Shown: piece by piece, positions 1 to 26,586 of the stretch
How the letters are laid out: each line of letters begins with the position of its first letter
Position numbering within the stretch: position 1 is the first letter of the stretch
Assembly: GCA_008632985.1 (NCBI GenBank)
Contig: QPGO01000374.1
Location: forward strand, 1-36,687
Length of the DNA stretch: 36,687 nucleotides
Direction: 5' to 3'
Origin: Psammoneis japonica
Taxonomy: Eukaryota
Position numbers and translations under genes: made by a program
Notes under the pieces: model-generated
The model's input: only the letters and a program-made list of their open reading frames with translations
Database searches by the model: none
Told to the model about the DNA's origin: nothing

Positions 1-493
1 GGCTCTTGCTGGAAGCAACTCAAGACACCACAAATCAGTTGAGAGTCTGTTCCACAAACCACACAGCATTGTTGTTGCTGCCATTGCTGCTGCTGCTGCC
101 CATGCTTGTTGGGGAAGTGCACTGTGTTGCTCATGACAGTGGTTCATTGCCACAGAATCTTTCTGGAGTGGTGCATTTGCTCATGCCCAGTTTCCAGCAG
201 CCATGGCTGTTGCATCAGTGTCACTCATGCACCAACAGCAACAGAGCAACAACAGCAGAGCAACAGCAGCACCATGATGTCCAGCATCAACCTAGCTGTC
301 CATCTGTGAGCTGTCTGTGTGAGGAGCTCTTCACTTTTTGACAGAGCAGCGGTGCTGGAAACAGCTCAAGTTGATGCCTCTGTGTTGCTCCATGGCTCTG
401 CAAGCATTGACAACCACTGGGATGGCTTTTGCTGGCTGTTGTGCTGTGTGGGGCTGCTGTGCTTTGTGTGCACTGCTGTGCTCAGCTGCTTCC
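1..493. repeat. Degenerate dispersed repeat; uninterrupted paralogue of 18688-19113 + 26772-26893
   Basis: Colinear similarity (gcaactcaagacaccacaaa.cagttgagagtctgt ... cactttttgacagag|cagc...tgtgttgctcc) to the two flanks of the second copia; only one TpA seen in the segment. Confidence 0.85.
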
Positions 494-1245
494 TTTGAGC
501 AAGACAAGCTGGTGTGTTCAACTCAGATTGCTGCTGTGTTTGCCAAGAGCACTCTCACACAAAAATCAAGAGGTGTTTGTTTCTGGAGGCTTGTGTCACT
601 GATTGGTGACACAAGGTTCAAAAACTGAAAATGAAAAAAGTGATGAAAAGGTTTTTTGGCCAGCAGCCCCAAACATTTCTGGAGTCCGTGACTGAAATTT
701 TGGCCCCCAACACCTGCAGCAGGCACACATGCCCTGTGTGCTGCAGGCTTGTGCCAATGTGCAACCACAGTCCATCCATTGCATGCAAATGTCCATGTGC
801 TGTTGTTGTTCAAATAAAGAGGGCGGGTGGGGCTGCGCAGGCTTCAACAATTTGTCCTCGTTTCATGTGCATCAGATCAGTTGCGGGCCAGCTTCCCAAC
901 TCCAATGTGATTGCACATCGGCTGCGGGAACTTCAAGTTGTTGCACACCAAGGGTGGAGCTTTTCAACATTTTGATTTTTTTCCTGACACAGCAAACTCA
1001 CAATGATGCTCAACAACCAGCAGCAATGCTCTCAATGGGAGGGATGCAAACATTGTTTGACATTTTGCTTCATCCACAAACTTGTCACACAATGATGTCT
1101 GATGCACAGGCTGCTTTTGACACAAAAAAAAAGGCCAAGAAGACTTGCATTTGCAGCTGGGGCAATGAGCGCCACTTCACATTGTGCACTCAGCACACGT
1201 GCTTGGCACATCTGATGTCCGCAATGTGACCCATCTTGTGAAAGT

Positions 1246-1521
1246 TGACAGGATTTGAATGGGATTTAGGTGCGCGCGAAATGTCGCGCGCTGTTTAGTT
1301 TACCGCGCACAGTTTTGTGTGCTTTAGTTCCGCGCGTTCGCGCGCGATGTAGTTTGCTTTCGAGCCACAAGGCTCACAAGAATAACAACAGCAGCCCGAT
1401 TGTACCGACTTGCACGTCTTTCGGCTCCTGCAACGGTCTCTGAGCGGAGACTCATCTGCTGTTTAGACAGCAGCAAGGAGTCATTGTTTGAATTCTTGCC
1501 ACTTGCCTTCAATTTCTGTCA
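1246..1521 (+). repeat. 5' LTR of copia-1
   Basis: Aligns without gaps to 8080-8355; 23 mismatches by manual alignment, all transitions. Confidence 0.96.
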
Positions 1522-1532
1522 GATTGACAGTC
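1522..1532 (+). promoter_or_regulatory. Putative primer-binding site of copia-1 (GATTGACAGTC)
   Basis: Directly follows the 5' LTR; restoring one TG to TA gives GATTAACAGTC, the reverse complement of a tRNA-Asn(GTT) anticodon-arm sequence GACTGTTAATC. Confidence 0.45.
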
Positions 1533-2462
1533 TTGCTCATTGTCAACCCATTGAGCAACCGCCATCGTCGTCGTTGATTTTACCGACGACGCTATTTCAA
1601 TTCTGCGTGGACCTCCGCATATGTTCTACACACATCGGCAAGTCTGCGCGTGTTCAATGCCAGGGCATCGGCAGGAAGTTAACGTCACCGTCAAGTCTCC
1701 TTGCCGCTGGATGTCTGGATTGATTGTGCCATTTTCATCGCTGCAGACATGCTTCCAACGGTCACATCCAAGTCCATCTTTGATCATCATCCCTTGACAT
1801 GCACATTCAACGGTTGACGGTCAAGAACCCTGCATGTTCAAGTGTCTTCGTCGCTGAAGACACGTGTGCATGCATCCATGTCTTCACGGCCAAGAACTTG
1901 CACCCACTCTTTGGACTGCGGCTTTGCCATCACTCTGCAAGCACGCCGAGTCTATTGCACCTGATCTGCCCCGGACTGCTGGTGCTCTACAGTTCCACCA
2001 GGTCCACGAGGACGACTGTGAGAGCAAGCAGCCGTGATTGCAGCCTACGTTGGGGCGAGGGTGTTTTTTCCCGCGTTTGTTCGTTCGTCCACAGCGCCTG
2101 ACGCCTGCATCAACTGGCCAGCCTGATCGGGAAATCCAACCGACACAAAACAAGAACGGTTCGGGGGTCTTGTCCACCTCTGGTCAGCTCACCTGCAGGG
2201 GTTTACAACCCGCTACTCCGCTCGCAAGCAACCCAAAGTGCCGCCAGCTGCGGGTTCGGACGTGCCGGCACAACTCTGCGGACCGGACAGGAAGCTCAGC
2301 AACCAACTGCCAACGGGATGGCATGACCCGGTGGCTTCTGACTTGCAAGACAGTTCAAGTTTTCAAGTCAAGTTTCAAGTTTTCAAATCAAGTTTCAAGT
2401 TGATGCCAAGTCATTCCAAGTCCACCCTCCAACTCTAGTTCCGGCACCCAATCAGTTCCACC

Positions 2463-5400
2463 ATGGTTCTCACTCGTCAGCAACAAACCGATGGTTTCGA
2501 GCACGTTGTTGGAACCGTGCTTGCTCAAGGTGCTGGGAGCCCTCTTCGTTTGGCTTTGATCCAAGACGGCACAGACTCGCATCAAGAACTGTTCACGTTC
2601 ATGCCGTCCCAAATCGACTCGCTTGAGCATGACAACAGCACTGGTGTGATCCCTTTGCCCCGCGGTTACAAGAACATGTCAGCAGCTCTCATCAGTCTGT
2701 GCATTGTCAAAGCACACGAAGGTCTTGATGTTGCCAATGACTCCTCGTTGTTCACGCATGGCGAGTTCCTCGCCTGCCGCCTCAGCCCCGACTGCATGTC
2801 TTCTGTGTCCGTCGGCAGCTCACCCCTCGCACCTCCGCATGTCACCAACCCGACCAAGGCACGCGACCCGGTGCGAGACTTCAAACGAGGCATCAAGCGT
2901 GACCCCACTGCTTTCACGGCTCTCAAATCTGACAAGCAGTGGCACACTTGGCACACCTCACTTGTGGCACAAGCCCGTGCCCAAGACGTCGAGTGCATTC
3001 TAGACTCATCGTACAAACCGACCAGTCCTGAAGACAAACTGCTCTTTGCTGAACAGCAAAAGTGCATGTTCGCCGTCTTCGAACGCATCCTTCTCACCGA
3101 CAAGGGCAAGGCTCTCATTCGCGAAAATGTGGGGTCTTCTGACGCCTGGACCATCTGCCGCGCCTTGTCTGAGCATGCGCTCGCCTCCACCCGCGCATCT
3201 GTCGAGTCTTCCACTTTGCCAACGCACCTTGCCACCGCACGTCTTGGTGATGGCACTTGGAAAGGCCCGACCCACGGGTTCATCCTTCATTGGCAAGATC
3301 AGTTGTGCAAGTGCGAGGCACTCATCCCGGCCAGTGACCACTTCTCTGAAGGACAGAAGCGCGTCATGCTTGAGAATGCCATGCACCCTGTCGAGGAACT
3401 CCGTGCTGTCAAGAACCAAGCTGATCAGCATCGTACGCAGAGTGGCAAGAGCCTCACATGCGATCAACACTGTGGCTTGCTCCTCTCCGCGGCAGCTCAG
3501 TGCGACAGCACGTTTCAACCCAAGACGACACCTCGAGCTCCCCGACGCGCCACACACGCACACGATGTCTGCTCCGAGGAACCGTCCGACGATGTGTTCT
3601 ACGACATTGACAGTGACATTGACGTCCTTCAGGCTCACGCTGCCTGCACCCGCGGTCCCAGCCTCGCCGGTGACCAATGGCATCATCTCCCTCCCGACCA
3701 CCAACGGATTTGGGATTCGTTGCCTGATTCCTCCAAGGCGATCATCCTCGCGCATTCTCGCCCGCCTCCTCGCAACCCGCGCGCCAGCAACTGCCATGAG
3801 TGCGTTGAGATCAACCTTCACGACCAACGACTTGGGAGTGATGGTGATGTCAACTTGTCCAACACGACTCCTGCTGCCTCTGGTGACCCCGCCCCAAATG
3901 TGGATGCCACACCAGATAATCCCATTCTGGCGCACCTCACCAAGCGCAAGCCATTGCCTCCCGGTGATCTGCAATGCCTCTTGTCCCCCAACCAAGCCCC
4001 CAGCGCTAGTCGATCGGGCCCATCCGCCGCTCCCTCTACCTCGTCAGCTCCCACAGATGACACAGAACTCAACGGCCGTACCTGCCGCCGCGTCAACAAC
4101 CACAACGTCATTCACTCTGCCTCCACTCATCGCTCCACACGCACCGGTGCTCTAGTCGATCGTGGAGCCAACGGCGGCATTGCTGGCGACGACGTTCGCG
4201 TCATTGCACGCACCTCTCGCCAAGTCGACGTTCAGGGCATTGACGACCACCAATTGGTGGACATCCCCATTGTCACTGCTGGTGCCGTCATTGAGACACA
4301 GCGTGGTCCCGTTGTCGCCATTCTCCATCAGCACGCGTGCACTGGAAAGGGCAAGACCATCCATTCCTGCGGTCAGCTAGAATGGCACAAACACGATGTC
4401 AACGATCGCTCTGTCAAGGTGCCCAACGGCCTGCAGCGTGTCACCACCCCTGACGGCTACGTCATCCCAATCGACATCAAGGGTGGCCTGCCTTGTGTTG
4501 CCATGCGGCCCCACACTGACGACGAATGGGACACCCTGCCACATGTCATCCTCACTGGTGATGACACATGGGATCCTTCCGTCCTCGACCACTCTGTCAC
4601 TGACGACGACCAATGGCATGACGTGATCTGTGACCTGCAGGACGATCCCACTGCCAACCCATTTGACGAGTGCGGCAACTGCCGTCACCGTGTCGTTGTC
4701 AACCAGGCCATCATGTCCGCCTCCTTGTCCCCCGATCACGCGTCCGCCCTCGATGACCACCTCATTCCAACTGAGGACGTGTTCTGCGAATGCCACTTGC
4801 ACGCAATTGACCCCACGGACGACGATGTCCTGCCTCCGGAGCGCAATGTGCAGCCCAAGGACCCCCCTTACGAGTCCCTTCGGCCCTGCTTTGGTTTCCA
4901 ACCTGCCGACACGGTTCGCCGCACCTTCGACTGCACCACGCAATGCGCCCGCATGCCCGCCGGTGCGCACCTTCGGAAGGCCCATAAATTGCCCAACCCC
5001 GCCCTTAATGTGCACCGTCGCAACGAGCCCATCGCCACTGACACCGTTTGTGCTGACACCCCGGCTGTCGACTCTGGTTGCACCAGTGCCCAACTGTTTG
5101 TTGGCACCGAGTCTACCGTCACTGACGTCTACGGCACCAAAACCGACAAAGAATTTGTCAATGCACTCGAGGACCAAATCCGCGAGCGTGGTGCTCCATC
5201 CAAACTCATCAGCGACCGTGCTCAGGTTGAGATCAGCAACAAGGTGCTCGGGATCCTACGAGCCCTCTTCATCTCCAGCTGGCAAAGTGAGCCTCACCAG
5301 CAACACCAAAACTTTGCCGAGCGTCGATGCCAGACCGTGAAGCACATGGCGAACACTGTCATGGATCGTTTTGGTTCGCCCGCCCACACATGGCTGCTGG

Positions 5401-8132
5401 CGCTCATGTGTGTGTGCTTCACACTCAACCACACAGCGTCCCCACGTCTCCACTGGTGCACGCCCCTCGAGACTCTCACTGGCTCCACCCCGGACATCAG
5501 CCCATTGCTCCGCTTTCACTGGTGGGAACCCGTGTGCTTCCACCTCGATGACTCCGATTGGCCGTCCGAATCCCGTGAGTTGCGCGGACGCTTTGTTGGC
5601 ATTGCTGAGCACGTCGGCCACCAGATGACCTTCAAGATTCTCTCTGACGAGACTCAGAAGATTCTCTGCCGGTCCAACGTACGCTCCGCTGCCACCGATC
5701 CTGCCGTTCAAAACCTGCGCCTTGATCCTCCTGATGGGGAGCCACCTGAACCCATCATCAAATCTCGCCATGACGACAATCCCGTCAATTCCCCTGATGG
5801 GGAGATCAGGACACCCAAGATGCCAGTTTTCGATCCGCAGGACATCATTGGACGCACCTTCCTCATGCAGCCACAAGAGGACGGACAACGCCACAGAGCT
5901 CGCATCGTCAAGGCCATTGAAGATCATGAATGGAAAGTGAACGGCAATCCTGAGCTCACTAAATTCGTCTGCTCTGTCAACAACGACGAATGCGAGGAAG
6001 TCCTTGCTCACAACGACATCATGAATCACATCAAGCAAGAGGACGAAGACACTGCTGTTTGGAAATTTCGACGCATCGTGTCACACGAAGGACCCCTGAA
6101 GCCCCATGACCCAACCTGGAAAGGCTCAAGCTACAACATCATGCTTGAATGGGAAAGTGGGGAGATCACGTCCGAGCCTCTTGCCATCATCGCCAAGGAC
6201 AACCCTGTCACCTGCGCCATCCATGCGCGAGAGAACGGACTTCTCGACACTGATGGTTGGAAACGGTTCCGCACCATCGCGAGGCGTCAGAAGAAGCCAC
6301 TCCGCATGGCCAACCAAGCCAAGCTTCGCTCCTTCCGCACTGCACCTCGCTACAAGCACGGATGCGAAGTTCCCCGGAACTGCAAACACGCCATGTCCCT
6401 AGACGAACGCAACGGCAACCGCAAATGGGGAGACGCAACCAATCTCGAGATGGACCAACTCGATGATTACGAAGTCTTTCATGACTGCGGGCCCTCCGAG
6501 TCTTCCACTCCTCCTGCGGGACACAAGAGGATCCGAGTGCACCTGGTGCACGACGTGAAGCACGACGGTCGCCACAAGGCACGACTCGTAGCCGATGGAC
6601 ACCTCACGGACGTACCTGTCGACAGTGTGTGCTCTGGAGCAGTCTCCTTTTGTGGCCTTCGGCTGATGATTTTCCTGGCTGAACTCAACGAGTTGGAGAC
6701 ATGGGCCACCGACATTGGCAATGCCCACCTTGAGGCCACCACCAAGGATAAGCTGTACATTGTAGCTGGACCCGAATTTGGCAAACTCGAGGGCCACATT
6801 CTAGTCATCTACAAAGCCCTGTGTGGACTGCGCAGCTCCGGCCTCCGCTGGCACGAGCGCTTTGCCGACTGCCTGCGAGCTGAAGGTTTCTTCCCCTGTC
6901 GTGCGGAACCCGACATTTGGATGCGCAGGAACGGCGACCACTACGAACATGTTGCCGTTTATGTCGATGATCTCGCCATTGCCATGAAGGATCCTCAATC
7001 CTTCGTCGACACTCTCACGGAAAAGCACAAGTTCAAGCTCAAGGGCACGGGACCGATTGAGTTCCATCCAGGCTGCGACTTTTCCCGGGATCCTGACGGC
7101 ACCTTGTGCTTGTCTCCGCGCAAGTACATTGAACGCATGGTCGACAGTTGCGCACGACTGTTTGGGGAGAAACCTGCCACCAATGCCCTGTCACCCCTGG
7201 AGAAGGGTGACCACCCCGAACTGGACACATCCGAACTGCTGGGGCCCAATGGCGTTCAACAGTTCCAGTCTCTTGTTGGTTCCCTCCAATGGGCAGTGTC
7301 TCTTGGTCGCATTGACATCACCACAGCCGTCATGTCACTCTCTAGCTTCCGAGCTGCACCCCGTCAAGGCCACTTGGATCGTGCCAAACGCGTCTGTGGG
7401 TGCCTCTCCAAGATGCGACATGGCGCTCTCCGCGTTCGCACGGAAGAGCCCGACTGTTCGGATCTCCCTGCACCGGCCCATGAATGGATGCATTCCGTGT
7501 ACGGCGAAGCGGAGGAGATGATCCCGAAGGACGCTCCACCGCCCCTTGGCAAGTTCGTCACTGCCACCCACTGCGTCGATGCAAACCTGCATCATTGCAT
7601 GCTCACCGGACGCTCCGTCATGGGAATGCTCCACTTCCTCAACAAATTCCCGGCTGATTGGTTCTCTAAGAAGCAAGCCACTGTGGAGACTGCAACCCAC
7701 GGGTCTGAATTTGTTGCCGCCAGGACGTGTGTCGAGTGGATTGTTGACCTCCGCATTGCCCTGCGTCACCTCGGCGTCCCAGCCCGTGACATCAGTTGCA
7801 TGTTCGGTGACAACAAGTCGGTTGTGGACAGTGCCACCATCCCGCACTCCAAGTTACACAAGCGACACACCGCTCCATTGTTCCATCGTGTGCGTGAAGC
7901 GATTGCCTCTGGTTGCCTTGAGCTCCACTTCATTGAAGGCTCCCGCAACCCTGCTGACATTCTCAGCAAGCATTGGGGTTGCTCCCAAGTCTGGGACCTT
8001 CTCCGCCCCCTCATGTTTTGGAACTTCATTCCATCCGAAGTCGAATCTGTTTCTGTGACTCCTCAAGCAAACTGGGGAGTGACAGGATTTGAGTGGGATT
8101 TGGGTGCACGCGAAATGTCGCGCGCTGTTTAG
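2463..8132 (+). CDS. Copia gag-pol polyprotein, 1889 aa; open but hypermutated and probably non-functional
   Basis: Gag (DFKRGIKRD), protease LVDRGANGG (~4152), integrase D..D..E (DTVCADT, SDRAQ, AERR), RT (DVKHDGRHKARLVA, KALCGL, YVDD at 6960), RNase H (VDANL, GSEF, GDN, ADILSK). Many normally conserved Tyr read as Cys/His. Confidence 0.93.
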   Translation: MVLTRQQQTDGFEHVVGTVLAQGAGSPLRLALIQDGTDSHQELFTFMPSQIDSLEHDNSTGVIPLPRGYKNMSAALISLCIVKAHEGLDVANDSSLFTHGEFLACRLSPDCMSSVSVGSSPLAPPHVTNPTKARDPVRDFKRGIKRDPTAFTALKSDKQWHTWHTSLVAQARAQDVECILDSSYKPTSPEDKLLFAEQQKCMFAVFERILLTDKGKALIRENVGSSDAWTICRALSEHALASTRASVESSTLPTHLATARLGDGTWKGPTHGFILHWQDQLCKCEALIPASDHFSEGQKRVMLENAMHPVEELRAVKNQADQHRTQSGKSLTCDQHCGLLLSAAAQCDSTFQPKTTPRAPRRATHAHDVCSEEPSDDVFYDIDSDIDVLQAHAACTRGPSLAGDQWHHLPPDHQRIWDSLPDSSKAIILAHSRPPPRNPRASNCHECVEINLHDQRLGSDGDVNLSNTTPAASGDPAPNVDATPDNPILAHLTKRKPLPPGDLQCLLSPNQAPSASRSGPSAAPSTSSAPTDDTELNGRTCRRVNNHNVIHSASTHRSTRTGALVDRGANGGIAGDDVRVIARTSRQVDVQGIDDHQLVDIPIVTAGAVIETQRGPVVAILHQHACTGKGKTIHSCGQLEWHKHDVNDRSVKVPNGLQRVTTPDGYVIPIDIKGGLPCVAMRPHTDDEWDTLPHVILTGDDTWDPSVLDHSVTDDDQWHDVICDLQDDPTANPFDECGNCRHRVVVNQAIMSASLSPDHASALDDHLIPTEDVFCECHLHAIDPTDDDVLPPERNVQPKDPPYESLRPCFGFQPADTVRRTFDCTTQCARMPAGAHLRKAHKLPNPALNVHRRNEPIATDTVCADTPAVDSGCTSAQLFVGTESTVTDVYGTKTDKEFVNALEDQIRERGAPSKLISDRAQVEISNKVLGILRALFISSWQSEPHQQHQNFAERRCQTVKHMANTVMDRFGSPAHTWLLALMCVCFTLNHTASPRLHWCTPLETLTGSTPDISPLLRFHWWEPVCFHLDDSDWPSESRELRGRFVGIAEHVGHQMTFKILSDETQKILCRSNVRSAATDPAVQNLRLDPPDGEPPEPIIKSRHDDNPVNSPDGEIRTPKMPVFDPQDIIGRTFLMQPQEDGQRHRARIVKAIEDHEWKVNGNPELTKFVCSVNNDECEEVLAHNDIMNHIKQEDEDTAVWKFRRIVSHEGPLKPHDPTWKGSSYNIMLEWESGEITSEPLAIIAKDNPVTCAIHARENGLLDTDGWKRFRTIARRQKKPLRMANQAKLRSFRTAPRYKHGCEVPRNCKHAMSLDERNGNRKWGDATNLEMDQLDDYEVFHDCGPSESSTPPAGHKRIRVHLVHDVKHDGRHKARLVADGHLTDVPVDSVCSGAVSFCGLRLMIFLAELNELETWATDIGNAHLEATTKDKLYIVAGPEFGKLEGHILVIYKALCGLRSSGLRWHERFADCLRAEGFFPCRAEPDIWMRRNGDHYEHVAVYVDDLAIAMKDPQSFVDTLTEKHKFKLKGTGPIEFHPGCDFSRDPDGTLCLSPRKYIERMVDSCARLFGEKPATNALSPLEKGDHPELDTSELLGPNGVQQFQSLVGSLQWAVSLGRIDITTAVMSLSSFRAAPRQGHLDRAKRVCGCLSKMRHGALRVRTEEPDCSDLPAPAHEWMHSVYGEAEEMIPKDAPPPLGKFVTATHCVDANLHHCMLTGRSVMGMLHFLNKFPADWFSKKQATVETATHGSEFVAARTCVEWIVDLRIALRHLGVPARDISCMFGDNKSVVDSATIPHSKLHKRHTAPLFHRVREAIASGCLELHFIEGSRNPADILSKHWGCSQVWDLLRPLMFWNFIPSEVESVSVTPQANWGVTGFEWDLGAREMSRAV
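8074..8079 (+). promoter_or_regulatory. Polypurine tract of copia-1
   Basis: GGGGAG immediately upstream of the 3' LTR TG. Confidence 0.7.
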
Positions 8133-8355
8133 TTTGCCGCGCACAGTTTTGTGTGCTTCAGTTCCACGCATTCGCGCGCGATGTGGTTTGCTTTCGAGCC
8201 ACAAGGCTCACAAGAATGACAACAGCAGCCCGACCACACCGACTTGCATGTCTTTCAGCTCCTGTGACGGTCTCTGAGCAGAGACTCATCTGCCATTTAG
8301 ACAGCAGCAAGGAGTTGTTGTTTGAATTCTTGCCATTTGCCTTCAATTTCTGTCA
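8080..8355 (+). repeat. 3' LTR of copia-1
   Basis: Direct repeat of 1246-1521, followed by TSD AAAGT. Confidence 0.96.
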
Positions 8356-9020
8356 AAAGTCATGCAAGGAGACAAGAATGGTCCACTCCAACATTGTGTT
8401 GAGAATCACCCCCCAACCTTGACAGAGCAGATTGCAGGGAACAGCACAAAGTGCTGGCTCACCACTGGCCTCTTGAGCTCATGCGACGCAACCATGAAAA
8501 AGATGGCAAGGTGGTCACAAGCAAGTTCTGGGCAGAGATTGACAAAGTGGAAGCAGAATCACATGATTGCTCAATGGCCAAAGACTGCAACTGTTCTGAA
8601 GAGAATGCTGGTGCAAGAAGCACCAACCTGCCAGTGCACCGTGGATTTGGGGAAGACGACTCTTCACTGTGTCGGTGGTGTCAACAATGATGAGTTCAAA
8701 TGAAGACTGTTCACATGCCAAGGAATTGCAAACACATGCAGTCACAAAACAAACACAGCAGGAGAACAAAACAGCCTTCTTTTCCTTTTGTTGCTTGTGG
8801 GGGTTGTTCTGTTGAGATCTCAGTGGAAAAACTCCACACAGCTCCTCTGACAGCGACACTTTGAAACCAAAAGCAGGTTGGAGGAGTTCACCCAGGCTTT
8901 AGGTGCCACCTCTTAGAACAGGGCCTGTCTGTCCTGTTGTTTAAAATTACATTCATGGCTTTTACTTCATTCTCCAAGCATTCTCGCGAAAAAAAGAGCA
9001 TGCCGAGTCGACTGGTGTCT

Positions 9021-9103
9021 GTCTACCGTCTACCGTCTACCGTACCGGTGTGTACTGTGCGCAGCATCTACCGGTACCGGCATGCGTCGACCGTACTGTA
9101 CCG
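9021..9103. repeat. TACCG/GTAC-rich low-complexity tract upstream of the island gene
   Basis: (GTCTACC)x3 followed by TACCGG, CCGGTACCGG and GTACTGTACCG; ~250 bp upstream of ATG 9358. Confidence 0.6.
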
Positions 9104-9357
9104 CGCGCTTCGCAAATAGGCGCACGTCCGGAATATCCAGAAACTGCGTAGAATCCAGCGTAGAATCAGTATTAATACCAGGGATGTCAAAAAATGACGA
9201 AATTCCGGATTTGCTTCTTTTTTGGCATTTCTACTGGGGCCCCGGAACTGCTTCTACGTTGCGGGATAGCATTGCTCATGCACTTGCAAAAAAGCGTTGT
9301 TGCTGTTTGCTCGTTTTGTGTTACAAGTATTGTTGTTTTATATTACACAGAACTACA

Positions 9358-12300
9358 ATGGAGCAAGGGACTGACCACAACAATGTGGTCTCACAAACAG
9401 AAGCGGGGAAGCTCGTTGTCGAAACGAGCGGAGACGAAATCGATCAAACCAAACAAAAAGACGGACGCGACGAAATCCAGGCCGTGCTCGTTGTCGGGGA
9501 AGCCTCAAAGAAGGCTGTCGCACAAGTGAACAACATTATCAGAAATAAAGTCGAAGTACAAGCTGGGCAAATGACTGCGGGGAGTCAGCACAGGTCCGGT
9601 GTCAACAAATTGCAGTGTTTGTTTATTCGAGCCATCATGGTCGCGGCTGACAATGACGACCGTAATACTCTCCAGCTAATTGCTAGTTGGTGCAGCCAGC
9701 ATAACTTTCGCATCCCTTCCTTTCGGTACCCAGGACGCAAGACCGTGTCCTTTGCGCAAAATGAGCGACTCGACGAGTGGCTCGATCATATCGACAAAAA
9801 GGAGGTCCGCAAACCCGCTCCACCGTTTGAGCTTTGGATGCCTGTCGCTGTAGCCCAGTGTCGCATTCTTTTCTCCAATGGTGACCGCATCCCCCATATT
9901 GAGAGGGTTGCTTCAAAATTGTGCGCCTTATACTACATGCAGGCGCTCAAGTACCTGCAATCAACGGAAAACACGAACGACAAGAACAACTATGAAGTGC
10001 TCAAAGACCTCTTGAAACTGCCTCCCTCCGAGGTAGAATCGGCTATCCGTCTACCCTACGACAACCAGATTCGACCCGCTCCGAGTGCCGTTCAGTATTT
10101 GTCAACCACCGACGCGAAACCAGAAGCCAAGACCGTCCAAGTCGCCACTGACGGACTTAGGGGCGCTGCCAAGATGCCTCCCATTTTCGAAGACGACGAT
10201 TCGCCTCTACAAGGCACGGCCAAATTGCCCTCTCGACCGAAGAAGTCCCCCGGCACCGGTGCGCCGTCGATCAAAACTGTCTACAGCACGGACTCGCAAG
10301 ACTCGGACATCACCGATATCTCCACTCCCCCATCGAATAAGCGAGAATTGGAAGCCCGCTATCGTCTACTTGCAAAGACAAACCAGAAACTGCTGCGTCA
10401 ATGTCGCACGCGCGGAAGCCAACTCAAGCAATTGAGAAAATTGCCGTCAACCAGTCGGAAACCAACAAGAACCAATCTGCAACCATCCGGGAGAATGCGA
10501 CTACCGTCAAAGAAATGTACGCGGAGGTAAAGCGACTTGTCTCTGAGAACGACGATTTGAGGCGTCAACTTATGGACAACATTATGGCCATGGACCAACT
10601 CATGAAGGCGGGCCGCGACCGGACCGACGAGTACTTCCGTAATTTAGATCGACTGTTCCCGAAAGACTTTCTTTCAAAGCTTGTGAAGACGCCAGAGAAA
10701 CGTAAAGAGCTCAAGGACCTCGTGGACGTACTCACTTCGGAGGGTTTCAAGTATCCCCGCATTTTGGAGGGCGATCTTACGAAGATGCCGGAGGAAGCGC
10801 TGCGAAGCTGTTTGAACTACTCAAACCTGCGTCGGGCTTGTATGATAAGCGCTCTGGAATATTTCTGTTCCTAACGCACGGCGACAATCGCGACGAAGTC
10901 ACCGTCGACGACATTGACAACATGTGTTACGAGATTCTACCGAAGGTTGGATTCACTGTGCAGTTCGGTATTACCGTGAAAGACACGAGTAGCAACGAGT
11001 TTGTTCTCGGTCTCATTAGTAGGTCCCAAGACGAGATCCCCGATTTGTATGGATCTCTTGCTGTCGTCGCTGCTCGTACGCCGAACGCAGAGCATACGAC
11101 ATTGGAGAGCGACAGTTCCGAAGGCACTTCTACTTTGCCCATGACTCCACGCATTCTCCAAGATTTCGTCTACCCTGACTGCCGCGAGTCGACCGCAACC
11201 AAGACCACTGTGACGAAGTTCCGTCTCACCTCCAAGCATCAACAAGGATTGCACACGCCATTTGAAAACGATCCAGTCATGCTTGTCCTTGACAGTGTGG
11301 ACCTCGACGATGGCGGCAAGGCTCTTTGGGACCAAGCGACTCGAAAAAGCCAATGATGTTGACGTTTGTCAAAAAGCTTGACGGTGATTTTCCGTCCTTG
11401 AAGGGTGCCATTGAGGAAGAGCGAGTGAGCTTTTTTGGATTGAATGCGATCCAACTCTGCAACGACGACCATCAGAACGTCAAGGAACTGCTAGTTGCTG
11501 CTCGATCGAGCGGCTGCGAGTACAGTTTGGAAAATATCACCCACAAAGAATTGACTGAAGATGAATTGATCGAGCACTTTGCTGACCTCGTTGAGCCAAA
11601 GCGTTTCAAGACCTCCCGCCGGACATTGGAGCCGACGACTACCAGGATGACTATTCTCCGGACGTCACCTTTGCCAAAAAGGAGGATACGCCTGACAGCG
11701 ATGGCATGTGGAAGGTACAGCCGAATACTACGAAATGCAATTATTGCCTTGCCCCTAACGCTATCGACGCCGAGACCTGTGTGTCTTGCCAACAATCTTT
11801 TGTTCCAGCCCGCAGCCCGATCCTCCCACTCCCAAAGCGACCTCTTTGGAGGGGAGCTCAACGAATTCGGGTTTTCGTTTACGGGCACGGGGACGGTTCG
11901 GCTTCTACTCATTTGGCCAGTACGGGAAACGCTTTTACGGGCAGTGATTCGAGCGTCAATGCGCCGGGAGGATGGACGTTTGATCCAGCATCCTCGAATC
12001 CAAGCGAAAGCGCCAATGCGCCGGAAGGATGGACGTTTGATCCAAGCAAGAGCGCTCAGGAGCCGACAGAAACCACCACGGGAGGTGGTGCTGTCACGGA
12101 CGTGACCGTCAAGCCAAGCAAGAGCGTCGATCAGCCGACAGCAACCACCACGGGAGGTGGTGCCGTCACGGACTCGGCCGTCAAACCAAGCAAGAGCATT
12201 ACGGAGCCGACAGCAACCACCACGGGAGGTGGCACCGTCACGGAATCGGCCGTCAAACCAAGCAAGAGCGCCGAAGCCAACGGGAAGGCGCCGGGATCGT

Positions 12301-12746
12301 CTTCGGCTGCCGACATGAGATTCTCCATTAACGGCATGTTCCCTGCTACGGGTGGACCTGCCCCGGGAGCGACCTCCGAATCCGTCAAGACCGATATGTT
12401 TGCTTTCAACGATGTCGTCGAATCTCCTGCCGCAACTGGAAATGCCAACGAGACAAAGGGGAGCGGGGGATCCTTGAAGAAAGTCGCGACGACCACGGAA
12501 ACAAGCGATGCTGCCGCGACGACTGGGGCTTCCAAGAAAGCGGACTTGGAGAACGAATCCAACGGAAAGGCGAAATCCAAGACGAAGAAGAAGCCCGGTC
12601 AAGGTCGTCCACCTGTTGCGCGAAGCCGTTCGGCGGCCAATGAAGTCGTTGAAGACCAAAATGAGCGTCGTCCTCCCTTGACTCGCTCCGCCTCGGGCCC
12701 GCGCCGCTCTGCTCGTTTGCGAAATCAGGAAGGGCGAAACGACTGA
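9358..12746 (+). CDS. ~1130-aa protein with coiled coil, RanBP2-type zinc finger and low-complexity S/T/G repeat tail; frame broken by 4-7 single-base deletions
   Basis: Successive overlapping + strand ORFs join into one frame when one base is added in short homopolymers; normal Tyr, TpA and CpG content; C-x2-C-x3-N-x6-C-x2-C at 11736-11790; basic C-terminus (RRSARLR). Start codon is my best guess. Confidence 0.7.
12042..12270 (+). repeat. 72-bp (24-aa) coding tandem repeat, ~3.2 copies
   Basis: ccaagcaagagc recurs at 12042, 12114, 12186 and 12258 (PSKS..PT.TTTGGG.VT...VK); preceded by a 57-bp-spaced duplicate NAP.GWTFDP at 11958/12015. Confidence 0.92.
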
Positions 12747-13159
12747 TTTTTACCCGCAATTGCTCCGATAGCCTTCCTACCACGAGCCTCTCTTAGCGTT
12801 TAGTCCTTGATTGAAATTGCCAAAGCTGTACAGCGTCAGTTCGTTTAGTTAGAAGTTTACTTGAACTACTTGTATTCCGGTAATCGAGGTAGCTCGAATT
12901 TTCCTCTAGTGAAATCGTTTACACAGATCAATCGGCGAAACATCGTCATTGAGCATTTTTCGTGCTTCGAGTGGCAACGTCTTGATGAACAGAGATTTTG
13001 GTGCCTATTCTTTGCAAATTCGTGCAGTCAAGCTACGTTCACTGCCAGTTCCTTCCCTTTTAAGCTGCCTCGGGCAATTTACTGGGCCCAAAATGCACTT
13101 CAAGTGCTGCTCCACCTTCGAATTAGCATTCAGGGATTACAAAATTGGTGTTAAGCAAA

Positions 13160-15556
13160 CAGTCAGTGGTGCAAGCTGTCCCAAAGGCTGTCTTTTCCGT
13201 CTTGAATGATTGTGGGACAGTGTGGGGGAAGGGTGCAGAGAACAAGAGCACGCACTTGCGAGTCCAAGAACTCATCAGAAAGGGCTTGGACTTTCAGCAG
13301 TTTTCAAAGTGTTGCCATGTCACTGTTCATTTTGCAAACATTGGCCACAAGAGCCGGTGCGGTGAAAATGTGGGATGCAAACAATTGACACTCCGTGTCA
13401 TCATGGAGACTGCAGTTGATGAGTTAAAGCAACACAAGATTCATTGCCAAGACAACCAATTGAGTTGGATTGGCAAGACCTGGTCTAAGGAGATTCTGAA
13501 ACCTGACATTCCAGGTGCAGAAGAAATTGCTGTGCCACTGGCAAAATGGCAGACCATCTGGGTGACTCCGTTCATTGGAGCATGCAACAAAACTTGAGAG
13601 TGATGGATGATTCATGTCTCACAAAGATGCAGAGACCATTGTCAGCTGAGGAACAAGTTGGAGTGCAGAATTTGATGATTGGTGTCATCAATGTTCACAT
13701 TTAGCTGCAAAAGATGGGGTCGCACCTTCGGGTGGCATTTTGATTCCAAGCTGGTGGCACATGATGCTTGTTTGTTGAAATGTTCTTTGCATGCCATGTG
13801 TGCAAAGCAGTGGCCAGCATAGACTGGTTGTGTGGACTCATTGACAATCTCTGCAATGACTTTGGTGCAAAGGCTCCAGGCCTTTTGGACAGTTTTGCAT
13901 GACTCTTCTTGAAAATTTTCAACACAGTCTTTGGCTGCAGGAAAAACCAAACCGTCTTTGCCCGCAAGTGGTGGGTTGAAATGAAAAGAATCATTGCACC
14001 AGTTTTCACTCCCAGCAAGTGTTGGATGCTGTCATGGCTGGCTTCATGTCATGCTTTGAATGTGCAAGCACCAACAACTCAGGTTTCTTCACCAGAAGGT
14101 CAGCGGGTTGCATTGTCCACCATCAATGTCAGCTGGCTCAATTTTGCTCAATGCCAAGCACACAGTGTGCACACATGGCTCATCATCAAGCTGATCTAGA
14201 TGGTGTGACATGTCAACTGCATTTCCAGTTTCCCCAACAATCCATGGATCAAGTCAATGACATGTCTGCCTGTCTGCTGACACAATGTGGCAGCGCATTG
14301 TTCTCACTGGATGTGGTTTGATGGTTGATTTTTTCACATTCTCAGCCTTTTTCTGCCAGTGCTGTGCACTCTTCTTCTGGAGAAAAAGTGATGTGGCCTT
14401 CAGATTGAAGTTTGTGCCACCATCGTTGGAGGCGGCACTTGCCTGCTCTTCCAAATCTGGCACTGGGGGTGTGATGCAATGCTTCTTGTTCACAGTGGCT
14501 CTAAAAAGTTTTCTCGATGACTCCAATGAAGTGGGTGATGTGAGCCTTTCATTGGATGGAGCATCATTCACAGAAGGTTCCTGCGGCAACTGTCTGGCCA
14601 ATTGACTTCTCCAACACATGCGGTTTGTTCCAAGGCACTGTCCAGTGTGGGCAAAACTGCTCACGGCAATGCTGTGGCTCTGCTGTCAATTGGAGCAAGC
14701 TTGACTTCAATTGCAGCCTTTTGATCCATCAAAGTGCAAACTCATTGTTCATGTGTGGTCTTCTCCCATTGCACCATCTCACTCCAGCATGTTTTCTCCT
14801 GCTTCTGGTCAGCAGCATTCATCTCAACAAAACTCCAAACCTTCTTGAAAATGGTGTGCCAGCTCATGTCATGACTGGCTGTGTGGCATGGTGTTGCACC
14901 TCCACCGTGTTCCAACTTGAGCACCACAATGATTGACAAGCTGTCTGTGGCATCAACCAGCATCATTTGCCTCTCCTTGGCCTGATTGTGTGATGGAACA
15001 GCTTCAGTGCATTGCATTGGGTGACCCCATTCAACTGCATGTTGTTCAATGATGGGGCCATTCTCTCAACAATCTTGAAAGCTCAGCAGTCACTTGACAC
15101 TCTCAGATTGTGTGCATTGTTTGTGAGAGCCATCAGCATTGTTTTGGTGAAGCTGCAAGATGACATGTCCGCAGCTCTCATCATGGTGTGTGTTGTTTTG
15201 ATGTTTTCCCAACAGAAGTTTTTTGCAGTGCCCCAACAAAGTCCAGATGGAGCCGCTGTGCGTGGCACCAGCCAGCCAGTTTCCAGATGAAGCCCTTTCT
15301 GGCAGGCACTCTTCTGCAGTGCCACAATTGTCACAGAAAATCTGTGCTCCAGATTGTGGTTCAGAGCTGGTGCAGATTTCAATGGGTTCCACAGAAACAG
15401 GTGCAGATTTTCAACAAGTGCAGATTTTTAAGAAAAATGATGTTTTGTCACCCAATTTGGAAGCTCCTCAAGCATGCGCACTTTGGCGCAGTCTGCCGCA
15501 TGTGCGTCATGCACACATTTGCAGCATGTGTGTGTGTGTGGGGGGGGGGGGGGGGG
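13160..15556. other. TpA- and CpG-depleted degenerate sequence, probably decayed TE; family not recognised
   Basis: Abrupt return to TpA-poor, TG/CA-rich composition; only short Cys/His-rich ORFs. Confidence 0.45.
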
Positions 15557-18687: not shown

Positions 18688-19113
18688 GGCCATTGCTGGA
18701 AGGAGCAACTCAAGACACCACAAACCAGTTGAGAGTCTGTGCAGCCACAAACCACATGGCATTGTTGTTGTCATTGCTGCTGCTGCTCATGGCCATGCTT
18801 TTTAGGGCAGTGTGCTGTGTTGCTCATGACAGCGGTCCCCACAAAACCTTTCTGCAGTGATGTGTTTGCTCACACCCAGTTTCCAGCAGCCATCATGGCT
18901 GCTGCATCATCAGCGTCGCTCAAGCAACAGTGACAGAGCAACAACAGCAGAGCAACAGCAGTGCCATGACATCCAGCATCAACCTCTTTGTCCATCAAAG
19001 CATCTGCTGTCCATTCAATGTCAATGATTTCCAGCACAGGGTGACTCCCAGCAGCGGCGGCATGCGAGCTGCCTCTGTGAGATGCGAGACACGCTCTCCA
19101 CTTTTTGACAGAG
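18688..19113. repeat. Dispersed repeat copy, left part, interrupted by copia-2
   Basis: Similar to 1-346; continues at 26772. Confidence 0.82.
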
Positions 19114-19299
19114 TGAATGAATGCTGACATGCTGTCACGGATGTGGGCAGTTTATGTGCTGTTGGCAATTGGTCCACTGTTGCTTGTTCAGTGGTCCCAG
19201 CAGTGCAACATCTCACAATTCTAGAACCTGTTGACATGCTGTTGAACATTCTATCTTGTCTTGCACCCAATTCTTGGCTGTCATGGCAGCATTTGTTCA
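19114..19299 (+). repeat. 5' LTR of copia-2 (186 bp)
   Basis: Aligns to 26588-26771 with about 22 substitutions and one 2-bp indel (manual count). Confidence 0.92.
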
Positions 19300-19312
19300 C
19301 TTTGTCAGAGCC
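19300..19312 (+). promoter_or_regulatory. Primer-binding site, tRNA-iMet type, mutated
   Basis: CTTTGTCAGAGCC right after the LTR; matches the TATCAGAGCC core of the canonical TGGTATCAGAGCC with TA->TG. Confidence 0.7.
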
Positions 19313-19842
19313 AATGTGCTGTGATGTTCATCGCCTGGAATGGGCATTGTGAACGGTGCAATGGTGTTGTTGCAATCGATTGATTTTTGCGGCAAGCGCC
19401 ATGTTGGTCCCATGGTTGCTTGCGTGATCGCTGAGTCCTTTGCACACATGATGTTCATGAATGTCAACGACATGCTCTTTGAGACCAGAGCTGTGATCCG
19501 TTAGACATGATGTCAGTGGACGAAATGTTTCATTGCATAAATGGAACATGCAGGCCAAGAGACACAAACATTTGTGATTGAGTTCACACAATGGTTTGTG
19601 TGTTAACGTCTGTCATCTGACCACACACATTTGATTAACCAAAATACGTTGTCAATCTCCTCAGACGCTCTGCATGTGGATGCATGTCTGTTGGAAATTG
19701 TTGCTTGGGAGTGACACCGCCTGCTCGTGGGTTCGCTAAGTAGAAACCGCCAAATCGGCACAAGAACCACACATTTTCTCACTTTTCTCCACTCACACAA
19801 GTGATGCTCACGCGTCGAAATGCGAACAACTGTTGACACACC

Positions 19843-22800
19843 ATGGCCGCTGCCGCTGCCTTTGCCGCTGCTCTTGCGTGTTGTGGATGCAATGTGCAGA
19901 CACGTGACTGCACAGCCAGTCAAGGCTTTGCCACTGTTCAGGACCCAGAACAGGTTCCTTTGGCAGAAATCACTGGCATGACTGAGGGCATCATGAAGGG
20001 GTGGATGCCGCTGCAAACCCTCAAGTCCATTTCCCACACCTGGTGAATCACAAGCTCAAGGCCCTGCATGCATGGGCTGACTGCCACAGGGCCCACAACC
20101 AAGAACCAACCCCGGCTCTCTTCACTGGTGACACCACAGGCCAATGGACGGCACATCTCATGGAATTGGAGCAGGTCAAGTCAGCGGATTTGGATGACAA
20201 CTTGGCGACCAAGACGGCCGTGGAGCTCAAGAACCTTCATGACTGGCCCACCTTCCAAGAGTTTCTGGAGACTGAACTGCGCCATCACCACAGCACCGTC
20301 ACCGGAGTGCCCCTCATCTGCCTTGTTGTTTGGGAGCATGAAGCAGTTGCCGCCAAGATGTTGAGTGCTGCCTGCTCTGCCATTGACGAAGACCTCATTG
20401 CTGCCACTCGACTTGCAGGAGCACAGCATGCACAGGACAGGCAATGCCTGCATGATCTCCTGAAAAAGTTGGTGACAGGTGGACCCGGGTGGGCTTTTGT
20501 CAAACCTTCCAACCGCAATCGTGATGGTCGCACTGCCTTCTTTGCCTTGAAACAGCAAGTGGAAGGATCAGCTGCCTCCACCACCCAAAAGAACCATGCT
20601 CATGCACAGATTGCTGCCGCAAAGAACACCAGATGGGGTTGCTTCACTTTTGACCAGTGCATCCAACGATGTCAGAAAGCCCACAATGACTTGTCAGAGC
20701 TGGGCAAACTGACAGCTGAGACCAAGAAGGTCTGTGACTTTCTCAAGGGCATCTCCAACCTGAGGTTGGAGACTGACAAGAGTGTGGTGGACGGTGACCC
20801 GGCAAAGCTTGCTGATTTCAAGGCATGCCAGCAGCACATGAAGACGCTGGTGGAGAATGCCAAGAACCGCAACACCGATGCCCGCGGGATGGCATCCATC
20901 CAGCACCGCAACAACCGGTGTGGAAACCCAGGTGGCAAACAACAACCCAAGAAGAAAAAAAAAACCGGAAATCCATTTTACCGCTGCCTTGCCACTGCCC
21001 ACACCAACACCGACCACAGTGGACCCACGTTCCCCAGCACCCACAAAGGGCGGCAGGGACAATTGAAACACTGTCAAACGTTGTTAGAAAGACAATGCCA
21101 TCAACACATTGTCCAAAGGCAATGCCGTTGATGCATCATCAGAAAGAGGCTGTTTGTTTGAAGTCGGAACAGCAACCAACCAGATGCTTGTTACACGGCA
21201 ACCACAGTTGCTGTGCCTCGAAGAATGGACAAGCCCAACCACACCACTTGGGAGACACCAAAATGAACACTGCAGAAAACTAAACACGTGTCTGTCTCCA
21301 AAGACAACATGCTTGAAGAGAAGTGAGAGAAATTCCTGGGATGAAAACACCCAAGAAAGTCCAACACGGACCCCAACAAAGAAAGGGAAATGATGGTCGG
21401 AAACATCGGATGAAATTTCCGTCATGCGCAGAATTGCACAGAAATTGTGCACTGAAGCTGCAAAATCGAAGAGCAAGAGGAGCAACACCAAGACTTGGAG
21501 ATGCCAGCCACTTGAAAGCCTTATGATGACCCACTTTGGAACACCGTAGAATGTCCATCATGGACTGCAACACATTGGGAAGAAAACTCAAAGGAAGCAC
21601 GTTGGTGAAAGAACAAAGACAAACCTGAAACGGTCGTCGCCTCGAAATTCTGGCCAAACGCATAGAATTGCACCTGAAATTTGTGCTGGAATGGCTGACT
21701 TGGAAATTGCTGAATCACGTAGAATTTAACACAGAAAACACACTGACATCGGGAAAGAAAATGCAAAGAGATGCGACACCATGGCGGCGCCGCTCTCCCG
21801 AACACAGACACAACAGAGTGTCCCCTCCGGCACCTTTTGGTTTCTCTGTCATTGGCACAACTGCCTGACATCCCAAAGTGCCCGAGGAGGTTGGCATGCC
21901 ACCACACTCTCACACAGGACAATCCTGCGGGTGCTTGCACAGAATTGCAACAACAACCCAAGAAGGACAAGCCCAGGATGTGGGCAGGCCATCATCCCAT
22001 TGATGAGTGGGATGCTCTTGACGACCCAGAAAAGGAACAAGTCAAGAAGCTCTGTGAAGCAAAGCAAGCCAAGAAGAAATGCAAGGCTACAGCTGTGTCT
22101 TTGGAGGCAGAGTCAAAAGAGACTCATGCTGTAAAAGGTGTCTGTTGCTGAGCCTGAAACCAAACCTGCTGACAAACAAAAAGACTCAGAGGAGTTGGAT
22201 TCGAAGCCTGCTGCCAATGCAGGCATGCAGTTTGGACGCAGTGCCCATGAGAAACCTCAGAAAGAGGAACGAATGGTTGCGTCAGCACCAGAAGGTGTGG
22301 AACCGACTGTTGCTGCACCTGCTGGCACTGCACATTTATCTGGGCAATTCTTGAAAGACATGCATGTCTCTCTGTCATCTGCTGGACATTCAGATGGTGA
22401 GGCAATGAATGACTTGGACTCGCACACTGATGCGTGTGCCGTTGGGTCCAATTTTATCATGTGCTCTGCAGATGTTGACCACACTGTTGCAGTGCATCCT
22501 TGCTCCAAAGAGTGTGCACCAATGAGGAACATCCCTGTTTGCACGGCTGCTGCCATGTGGGTTGATCCATCCAATGGACAACCATGCTTGCTGCCAGTCC
22601 ACGAGGCTGTGTTTTTTGGGGACAGAATGACAAACACCCTGCTGTGCCCCAACCAACTGCAAGCAAACGGGCTGACTGTCCATGACACCCCTTGCCAGTT
22701 TGACCCCAATGGCACACACTCCATTGCTTTCCCTGACTTGAAGATCAGGACACCCTTGCACATGCGAGGTGTTGCATTGGTCTTTGACTCACACAAGCCA

Positions 22801-25800: not shown

Positions 25801-26436
25801 GTGCTCCACATCTTGGTGCACTTGAAGGCTCACTCCAAGTCTGTGCTGGTGTTCGACAACACTGAGCCTGTCTTTGAAAAGAGTCATTTTGCCAAGTGTG
25901 ATTGGGAAGAGTGTCACCCTGGCACAGCTGAACCAATGCCGCCAAATGTGCTGGAAGCACATGGGAACAGCGCGACCACTGCTTGCTTTGTTGATGCCAA
26001 TCACGCCAGATGCCATGTGACGCACAGGTCCCACACTGGAATCCTGACATTCATCCAATGAGTGCCCATCTTGTGCTGCTCTGAGCGGCAGAGTGCCGTA
26101 GAGTCCTCTGCTTTTGGGTCTGAATTTGCAGTGATGAAGACTGCAGTGGAGCAAATTGAGGCTTTGCGTTGCAAGCTTCAGATGCTCGGAATCCCCATGG
26201 ATGGGGCCACCAATGTCTTCTGTGACAATGAAGCTGTCTTCAAGAACTCAATGAAGCCAGAGTCCATGTTGAAGAAGAAGCACAATGCAATTGACCATCA
26301 CAGGACTCACGAGGCACAAGCCACTGGAACAGCGCGCATTGCTTGGGAAGATGGGTGCACGAATCTAGCGGATGCACTGACTGAGTTGTTGCCTGGACCA
26401 AAGCTCCGAGAGATCATGAGTCACATCTTGTGGTGA
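19843..26436 (+). pseudogene. Copia-2 gag-pol pseudogene
   Basis: Gag (GVPL, RDGR.AFFALK, KKV.DFLKGI), protease LDSHTDAC (~22413), integrase (LVSDG, SPWQN..E), RT (FDVK, LHGLKSSG, YVDN at 25374), RNase H (FVDANHA, FGSEF, CDNEAV, NLADALT); multiple stops and frameshifts. Confidence 0.9.
20955..21948. mobile_element. ~1-kb unidentified insertion in copia-2 gag, flanked by a 17-bp direct repeat
   Basis: AACAACAACCCAAGAAG at 20938-20954 and 21949-21965; removing the insert restores gag (..GGKQQPKK|DKPRMWAGHHPIDEWDAL..). Confidence 0.8.
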
Positions 26437-26579
26437 GTCCCAAAAGGGGACAAACCAAATGGGTTTGCCATGCAGGTGCAGCTTTTTCCCACCCCCAAAA
26501 TGAAATGCCACCCTGGAACAGGGCAGCATCAGGTTGCATTTGGTTGTTGATCTGGCCCGAGTGGAGCCAGCATCAGTTC

Positions 26580-26586
26580 AAGGGGA
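26580..26586 (+). promoter_or_regulatory. Polypurine tract of copia-2
   Basis: AAGGGGA one base before the 3' LTR. Confidence 0.65.

Follow-up and report, generated by a model that had tools for sequence, protein, structure and literature searches.

How does a reading frame of 1889 codons stay open while the tyrosines that its relatives conserve disappear from it? The question is raised by contig QPGO01000374.1, of which positions 1 to 36,687 were analysed as one stretch of 36,687 nt (the window). The frame in question, an open reading frame (ORF) that ends in a TAG stop, appears in the ORF listing at 2463-8132 of the forward strand, exactly where an earlier note made from the letters alone had placed it. 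That note took it for a copia polyprotein in which TA had been changed to TG or CA, so that tyrosine gave way to cysteine or histidine while no stop codon arose. We find that 2463-8132 is the gag-pol frame of a complete Ty1/copia long terminal repeat (LTR) retrotransposon. We further consider it very probable (roughly 85%) that this element was struck, after its integration, by a host process acting at the DNA level, a hypermutation of A:T to G:C that is specific for TpA.

Tyrosine is replaced by cysteine and histidine

The composition of the ORF was compared with that of its 120 best full-length homologues, and the ORF was aligned by MAFFT with 60 of them, namely the first 60 that are 1800-2000 aa long. 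A column was scored as a conserved Tyr column when at least 70% of the 60 homologues carry Tyr, which gave 50 columns. Tyr accounts for 15 residues of the ORF (0.79%), compared to a homologue median of 3.82% (range 3.03-4.95%, n = 120). Cys, at 59 residues (3.12%), and His, at 98 (5.19%), exceed the homologue medians of 0.98% and 3.52%, respectively. At the 50 conserved Tyr columns the ORF reads Y 12 times, C 19 times, H 14 times, F four times and W once; among the homologues, C or H fills 45 of the 3000 cells at these columns. Other residue classes are retained in the ORF at 73-100% of their conserved columns, and the ORF is changed at 38 of 50 Tyr columns versus 105 of 841 other conserved columns (Fisher p = 1.7e-22). 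The systematic loss of Tyr to Cys or His claimed by the earlier note is therefore borne out by alignment, with C or H at 33 of the 50 columns.

Every Tyr motif that the note had named is altered relative to a Tyr found in 41-60 of the 60 homologues. The altered site is Tyr in all 60 for GNAHLEA, KALCGL and DSVCSG, in 59 for TATHGSEF and LRHLGVP, in 56 for HQHACTG, in 55 for HCVDAN, in 54 for HWGCSQ, in 46 for SCMFGDN and in 41 for AERRCQ. Two further motifs had been explained by the same change in other codons, and they fit: in SGAVS a V present in 60/60 homologues is A encoded by GCA, as expected from GTA, and in FHPG an L present in 60/60 homologues is P encoded by CCA, as expected from CTA. 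The loss of invariant residues suggests that the polyprotein is disabled. The tyrosine of the YVDD motif is retained. Of the 12 conserved Tyr codons that remain, not one is preceded by A.

TpA is depleted while CpG is kept

Dinucleotides were expressed as observed/expected ratios (o/e). Within the ORF, TpA stands at 0.15 (39 sites), TpG at 1.56 and CpA at 1.32, with ApT at 1.01, ApA at 1.06 and TpT at 1.01. Since TpA alone is depleted among the dinucleotides made of A and T, a general drift from AT to GC does not describe the pattern. CpG is still plentiful (o/e 0.90, 410 sites), and TpA loss outpaces CpG decay, as had been proposed from the sequence.

The same depletion is seen wherever TA can fall within or between codons. 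The ORF contains no ATA codon, one TTA, six CTA and four GTA. Codon junctions of the type NNT|ANN number 12, versus about 95 expected from base frequencies, while T|G junctions (238 versus about 146 expected) and C|A junctions (296 versus about 182) are in excess. Replacements that turn an ANN codon into GNN (I to V, T to A, N to D, S to G) are preceded by T in 16 of 25 cases, compared to 119 of 324 unchanged GNN codons (p 0.0098). All three L to P replacements are CCA, the sole L to S is TCA and both I to M are ATG. Only one of six V to A replacements is GCA, so the changes are not all of the TpA kind.

Compositional drift or GC-biased gene conversion, combined with CpG decay, might produce such a sequence in the absence of any TpA-specific process. 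The GC content of the element (0.56-0.60) is above that of the rest of the window and older repeats are CpG-poor (o/e 0.13-0.45), as this explanation would have it, but TpA alone is depleted, the near-expected CpG of the element means that CpG decay is not the source of the TG and CA excess, and the replacement of Tyr by Cys or His is polarised by outgroups. We regard drift as scarcely plausible.

Surviving TpA is seldom found in an ATA or TAT context (28 of 346 symmetrised neighbours in depleted blocks versus 70 of 308 in ordinary blocks). The scarcity of these survivors hints at a process with a wider sequence preference beyond TpA.

A complete element damaged after integration

The ORF is framed by two direct repeats that align without gaps at 91.7% identity and end in TGACAG...CTGTCA, and the same five bases adjoin the outer ends of both (Table 1). 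RVT_2 is the sole domain that Pfam recognises in the 1889 codons, scoring 81.4 bits, compared to 97.8-104 bits in three unmutated homologues. A profile built from residues ~781-1046 together with 14 metagenome relatives gave a weak match to retroviral integrase chains (5cz1, E 3.4e-4; 3jca, 9e-4; prototype foamy virus 3oyi, 8.7e-3); the profile was needed, since phmmer, run against solved structures with the window stretch on its own, returned no integrase match. The integrase region thus precedes the reverse transcriptase (RT; residues 1351-1562), which is the Ty1/copia arrangement. Neither the ORF nor the three unmutated homologues gave a match to Pfam rve, which thus escapes detection in this lineage with or without the mutations, and no gag or protease domain was recognised by Pfam in the same sequences. 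The leader between the 5' LTR and the ORF yielded no primer binding site, in the absence of a search aimed at one. The closest proteins in the collection searched, full-length or shorter, are at most 70% identical. One of the nearest Atlas clusters carries the automatic name 'Blackbeard family protein' (score 0.93); we take Blackbeard to be a diatom CoDi element, which serves as a lead only and not as a placement within CoDi.

The final 53 nt of the gag-pol frame (8080-8132) belong to the 3' LTR, and 55 of the 60 homologues stop 10-28 residues sooner. An original stop may have been lost through a change of TA to TG or CA (TAG or TAA to sense), the tail being too variable for proof.

The two LTRs of one element are identical at integration. 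Here they differ at 23 sites, and all 23 differences are transitions: six set TA against TG or CA, six set CG against TG or CA, four are doubles in which TG in one LTR faces CA in the other (eight sites), and three are of other kinds. Because LTRs that started identical have diverged by transitions only, the damage arose after integration, in the chromosome. All 12 differences of the TA and CG types point the same way: the 5' LTR keeps TA or CG, and the 3' LTR has the mutated form. The counts that remain (TA 8 versus 2 and CG 22 versus 16, 5' versus 3' LTR) mean that TpA and CpG loss co-vary between the element ends, perhaps because both respond to one chromatin cue or because the 5' LTR is protected.

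Direction of change and choice of strand

The direction TA to TG or CA, as the earlier note had polarised it, holds on three counts: Tyr is invariant in outgroups where the ORF has TGY or CAY, other copies of the family carry TA, and relatives have acquired C or H independently. Copies of the family were sought in Logan contigs of four public runs, from one sample of one study, and the 40 best-supported of 659 variant places were examined. In 16 of these 40 differences the window has TG or CA where the family has TA, and the reverse was found once. Within the leader (1522-2462), many family copies have TA at sites where the window has TG or CA.

On the coding strand, changes of conserved Tyr to Cys (A to G) number 22 and changes to His (T to C) 17, a balance that does not depart from equality (binomial p 0.52). 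The TG and CA outcomes showed no clustering along the sequence, with runs z of 0.6 for the window and of 0.2 and 0.03 for the metagenome loci L035 and L032, respectively. Among conserved Tyr columns now reading Y, C or H, 33 of 45 codons (~73%) have been converted, compared to 3 of 276 LTR sites outside the TA and CG classes. This indirect ratio would place the per-site excess at TpA at two orders of magnitude.

Relatives hit at the same codons with different outcomes

Metagenome relatives were compared over pol at 41 of 51 loci, a set that contains several near-duplicate pairs and from which ten loci with matches shorter than ~1.3 kb were excluded. Their TpA o/e has a median of 0.68 (range 0.15-1.16, n = 41), versus 0.16 for the window. 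Three of these loci, L035, L032 and L014, share 57-64% amino acid identity with the window, are Tyr-poor and have TpA o/e of 0.15, 0.26 and 0.33, respectively. At conserved Tyr columns, L035 reads C 9, H 6 and Y 2 of 20, L032 reads H 10, C 8 and Y 1 of 22, and L014 reads C 9, H 4 and Y 13 of 26. Unmutated loci keep Tyr at 25 of 30 columns (L001) and 29 of 31 (L003). A further locus, L004, was excluded from these counts, as its translation in a single frame contained 18 stops. The YVDD tyrosine is C in L035 and H in L032. These two loci are 94.5% identical to each other and differ at 99 sites, 87 of them transitions; the differences include 20 TG-to-CA doubles (40 sites), 25 of TA against TG or CA, and eight of the CG type.

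The earlier note had held that its reading would fail if homologues shared the same Cys and His residues. The same codons are indeed hit in relatives, but the choice of C or H varies from copy to copy: the states of the window, L035 and L032 are C/C/H at column 1390, H/H/C at column 1422 and C/C/H at column 1454. Since C or H differs per copy, these residues are independent mutational outcomes and not a shared functional state. Among 120 shorter database proteins, two (P0252, with 0.91% Tyr, and P0181, with 2.31%) likewise have C or H at conserved Tyr columns. No protein of this Tyr-poor, C- or H-bearing type was found among the 120 full-length homologues.

These copies also bear on the possibility of a sequencing artefact, in which a modified base at heterochromatic TpA was misread and TA was written as TG or CA. 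Modified bases are known to give motif-specific miscalls in some long-read data. The public-run contigs, however, hold the TG or CA of the window at part of the depth, beside copies with TA, and the same pattern of Tyr to Cys or His is present in independent metagenome contigs and in database proteins. A fixed, copy-specific TG or CA would moreover be unlike the consensus of a strand-dependent miscall. We find an artefact hardly credible.

At another metagenome locus, L027 (match 2-1666), TpA in pol is ordinary (o/e 0.61) and CpG is almost absent (o/e 0.07). From its sequence, the same element family appears to decay via CpG in other hosts.

Depletion extends over sharply bounded blocks

TpA depletion is not confined to the ORF but covers about 31.7 kb in all (Table 1). 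Over these 31.7 kb, per-kb TpA o/e is 0.02-0.27, and TG and CA lie at 1.15-2.3. At a resolution of 250 nt the borders are sharp and fall at ~9000, at ~13000-13250 and at 34000-34750; the kilobase at 34-35 kb has a TpA o/e of 0.47. In this one window, TpA is depleted in both copia elements, a satellite and the flanks and is ordinary at 9-13 kb and 34.0-34.75 kb. CpG inside the element is 0.80-0.99, compared to 0.13 (1-1000) and 0.21-0.24 (8251-9000) in its flanks, where TpA is 0.00-0.26. An element poor in TpA yet rich in CpG, within flanks poor in both, indicates that TpA decays first and CpG later.

Table 1. Features of the window with their coordinates; a full stop in the strand column means that no strand is assigned.
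Feature	Coordinates	Strand	Basis or remarks
TpA-depleted block, element and older flanking repeats	1-9000	.	TpA o/e 0.03-0.27 per kb
Target-site duplication AAAGT, left	1241-1245	+	same five bases adjoin outer ends of both LTRs
5' LTR, 276 nt, TG...CA ends	1246-1521	+	8 TA and 22 CG remaining
Leader, 5' LTR to ORF	1522-2462	+	assigned by position
gag-pol ORF, Tyr-depleted	2463-8132	+	residue 1 of homologues P0001, P0002 and P0036 aligns at nt 2463
Integrase catalytic core region	4803-5600	+	profile matches to retroviral integrase chains
Reverse transcriptase, Pfam RVT_2, residues 1351-1562	6513-7148	+	E 1e-22, 81.4 bits, cut-off 31.6
3' LTR, 276 nt	8080-8355	+	2 TA and 16 CG remaining; holds last 53 nt of ORF
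Target-site duplication AAAGT, right	8356-8360	+	adjoins outer end of 3' LTR
Ordinary-TpA block, sharp borders	9001-13000	.	TpA o/e 0.39-0.68 per kb; CpG 1.1-1.3
TpA- and CpG-depleted block including second copia	13251-34000	.	per-kb dinucleotide o/e
Ordinary-TpA island, 750 nt, ordinary CpG	34001-34750		TpA o/e 0.44-0.65
Depleted block to window end	34751-36687

The regional picture, together with strand balance and LTR divergence, bears on editing of RNA or cDNA before integration, by an ADAR-like conversion of A to I or by a deaminase during reverse transcription, such that the copy integrated already mutated. ADAR prefers a 5' U (Discussion of bioRxiv 10.64898/2026.01.13.699255), and editing enzymes are well known to attack retroelements. 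APOBEC3 and ADAR editing indeed resembles the present case as a deaminase-type hypermutation of retroelements that leaves missense-laden copies. Such editing, however, precedes integration and is restricted to one strand, of cDNA or of RNA, and the G to A changes of APOBEC make stops, whereas here both strands are affected after integration. The strand asymmetry that it would leave was not found (22 A to G versus 17 T to C on the coding strand), and the same signature separates the two LTRs, a divergence that can only have arisen after integration. In addition, TpA is just as scarce in DNA that is not a retroelement, the satellite and the flanks included, and the borders of the blocks ignore those of the element. 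Editing before integration is thus highly unlikely.

The second copia belongs to another family, is frameshifted and occupies 19111-26771. Its LTR pieces (19111-19299 and 26585-26771) are 86.8% identical with seven TG-to-CA doubles between them, and 717 translated residues contain 1 Tyr, 34 Cys and 38 His. A CAG/CAA-rich repeat is present twice (6-304 and 18693-18996) at 81.5% identity, and its copies show ten TG-to-CA doubles among other differences, which places the same footprint in non-copia DNA. From 35626 a tandem satellite, repeating every ~186 nt, continues past the window end at 36687; no TpA was present in the two 500-nt stretches compared, and its CpG o/e is 0.06-0.28. The island at 34001-34750 contains an inverted repeat (34072-34200 and 34515-34643, 89%) and may be a young insertion that is still unhit. 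Within the ordinary block at 9001-13000, where CpG is high (o/e 1.1-1.5), a 72-nt in-frame tandem repeat lies at 12042-12274, and an orphan ORF of 482 aa (9082-10530) had no Pfam family, homologue or Atlas match. Pfam assigned no family at E <= 0.01 to 20 further ORFs of the window, and ten of these, re-scanned at E <= 5, gave matches at chance level only.

The frame can stay open without selection

The earlier note had argued that a change of A:T to G:C cannot create a stop from a sense codon, and both enumeration and simulation agree. After 160 random substitutions the frame was still open in 1.6% of simulations with a uniform spectrum, in 1.4% with transitions only, in none with GC to AT or with CpA to TpA, as in fungal repeat-induced point mutation (RIP), and in 100% with AT to GC. 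Under the RIP-like spectrum it was open in 0.4% of cases (2/500) at 50 changes and in 0% at 100. The 1889-codon frame is therefore intact because A to G and T to C cannot make a stop. The idea that TA loss opens all six frames was rejected: depleted blocks have 27.6 stop trinucleotides per kb per strand and ordinary blocks 29.2, the near equality being due to a rise in TGA, and the long overlapping ORFs of the window are thus not accounted for by TA loss.

These simulations also weigh on an active lineage, in which the polyprotein tolerates or has adapted to Cys and His at former Tyr positions and selection keeps the frame open. The intact 1889 codons and the YVDD tyrosine would be in line with activity, as would the high abundance of the family in the public contigs, with 12141 pieces from X1, 2394 of them at a likeness of at least 99%. 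Yet the spectrum of AT to GC leaves the frame open without selection, and Tyr that is invariant in 60/60 homologues has been lost at seven columns. The LTRs have diverged solely by the same kinds of transition, other family copies hold TA at TG or CA sites of the window, and the hypermutated relatives have taken C or H independently, two of them without the YVDD Tyr. RVT_2 also scores ~16-23 bits below the three unmutated homologues. An active lineage is very unlikely on these grounds.

Comparison with known systems

A similar process is already known from one 2026 preprint, in integrated viruses of one alga. Its text reports that, in mutation-accumulation lines of Bigelowiella natans, integrated viral DNA undergoes hypermutation of TpA to TpG or CpA (Mettrop et al., bioRxiv 10.64898/2026.01.13.699255): 230 of 231 mutations in two viral regions were A to G or T to C, and 230 of 230 were at TpA. 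The preprint gives a Rho of 0.45 for the region of a nucleocytoplasmic large DNA virus (NCLDV) and 124 small clusters, reports that TpA-poor coding sequences (CDS) are enriched in RT and DDE domains, and advances as a hypothesis the deamination of adenine at TpA, with an ADAT2-like candidate. As far as that text goes, the window shares with B. natans the TpA target, products on both strands, the direction A:T to G:C, confinement to foreign or repeated DNA and TpA-poor RT CDS. It differs in that the target is an LTR retrotransposon with ~31.7 kb of repeats, near saturation (TpA o/e 0.02-0.15). The main text of the preprint makes no mention of stop codons, tyrosine, open reading frames, retrotransposons or LTRs.

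Fungal RIP resembles the present case as a repeat-directed, dinucleotide-specific transition hypermutation that acts after integration and inactivates transposons. However, RIP changes C to T, mostly CpA to TpA, and so raises TpA and makes many stops; in the ORF, TpA is at 0.15 and there are no stops in 1889 codons. Decay of methylated CpG likewise concerns a palindromic dinucleotide hit on either strand, with TpG and CpA as products and TG-to-CA doubles between copies, but the target here is TpA, ~80% of which is gone, and CpG is near expected. As for the identity of the element, it resembles the CoDi and Blackbeard elements of diatoms, as described in the text of Maumus et al. (2009; PMC2806351), in its Ty1/copia polyprotein and in that Pfam recognises RVT_2 alone. 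Its best database identity is 70%, and the lead to CoDi is the auto-named Atlas cluster. RIP, hypermutation and dinucleotides are not mentioned in the text of that paper.

A full-text literature search found no second report of TpA-directed hypermutation of A:T to G:C, the matches being mostly to fungal RIP, which runs in the opposite direction. In the same search, the combination of a stop-free 'zombie ORF' with a Tyr to Cys or His signature was not found in print.

Proposed process

TpA-specific hypermutation of the integrated element, which we prefer, starts from its observed anatomy, the polarity and post-integration timing of the damage, its strand symmetry, its regional limits and its recurrence in other copies. 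Each TpA would be converted independently, to TpG when one strand is hit or to CpA when the other is, with about equal odds, and conversion would be confined to sharply bounded repeat blocks. In coding sequence TAY (Tyr) would become TGY (Cys) or CAY (His), and NTA codons and NNT|ANN junctions would be affected likewise. As no change from sense to stop would be possible, the open frame would survive the loss of about three quarters of the conserved tyrosines. The targeting suggests a defence aimed at repeats or heterochromatin.

Several points weigh against this interpretation. CpG-type changes occur too, making up 6 of the 23 LTR differences, and the four LTR TG-to-CA doubles could derive from CG instead of TA. 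The 16:1 count in the public contigs comes from a selected sample, 40 of 659 variant places, and the direction tallies of X1 are balanced, with C or G in the window at 269 places versus T or A at 265. The public runs may share the sample of the assembly and hence not be independent. The YVDD Tyr and 11 other conserved Tyr survive in the ORF. The repeat-specificity of the process rests on one 36.7-kb window, and the ordinary block at 9-13 kb, with no Pfam family and no homologue, is not demonstrable as a host gene.

Strand choice at 50:50 without clustering, TG-to-CA doubles between sister copies, Tyr to Cys or His at invariant sites and TpA loss ahead of CpG are the signatures of the process, and they argue for one that acts per site on double-stranded DNA (dsDNA) rather than for one that works on RNA or runs processively along a single strand. 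The chemistry we favour, tentatively and at somewhat less than even odds, is that an enzyme deaminates adenine to inosine at TpA in dsDNA. The main alternative, which we hold somewhat less likely, is a symmetric mark on the bases of TpA that provokes errors when the DNA is replicated or repaired; by analogy with methyl-CpG, such a mark would fit the 50:50 unclustered pattern equally well.

The Blackbeard- and CoDi-like copia points to an ochrophyte, for instance a diatom. We entertain, at a little under an even chance, a joint 'anti-RIP' reading for a lineage other than the chlorarachniophytes, ochrophyte-like, in which the process would be heterochromatin-wide, would work through a TpA mark or a dsDNA adenine deaminase and would leave stop-free 'zombie' ORFs. 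Essentially all TpA of repeated DNA would then be turned into TpG or CpA, far faster than CpG decays, and hits that are independent of site and symmetric between strands would point to either a symmetric mark or a dsDNA adenine deaminase.

Significance

This locus shows the effect of TpA hypermutation on a retrotransposon, and how such a process can kill mobile DNA without any stop codon. Elements killed in this way keep full-length ORFs, so that ORF integrity and LTR identity mislead on activity and age. Gene predictors will annotate such stop-free frames as proteins. If the 'anti-RIP' reading is true, public protein collections already contain such 'zombie' ORFs, P0252 and P0181, annotated as predicted proteins.

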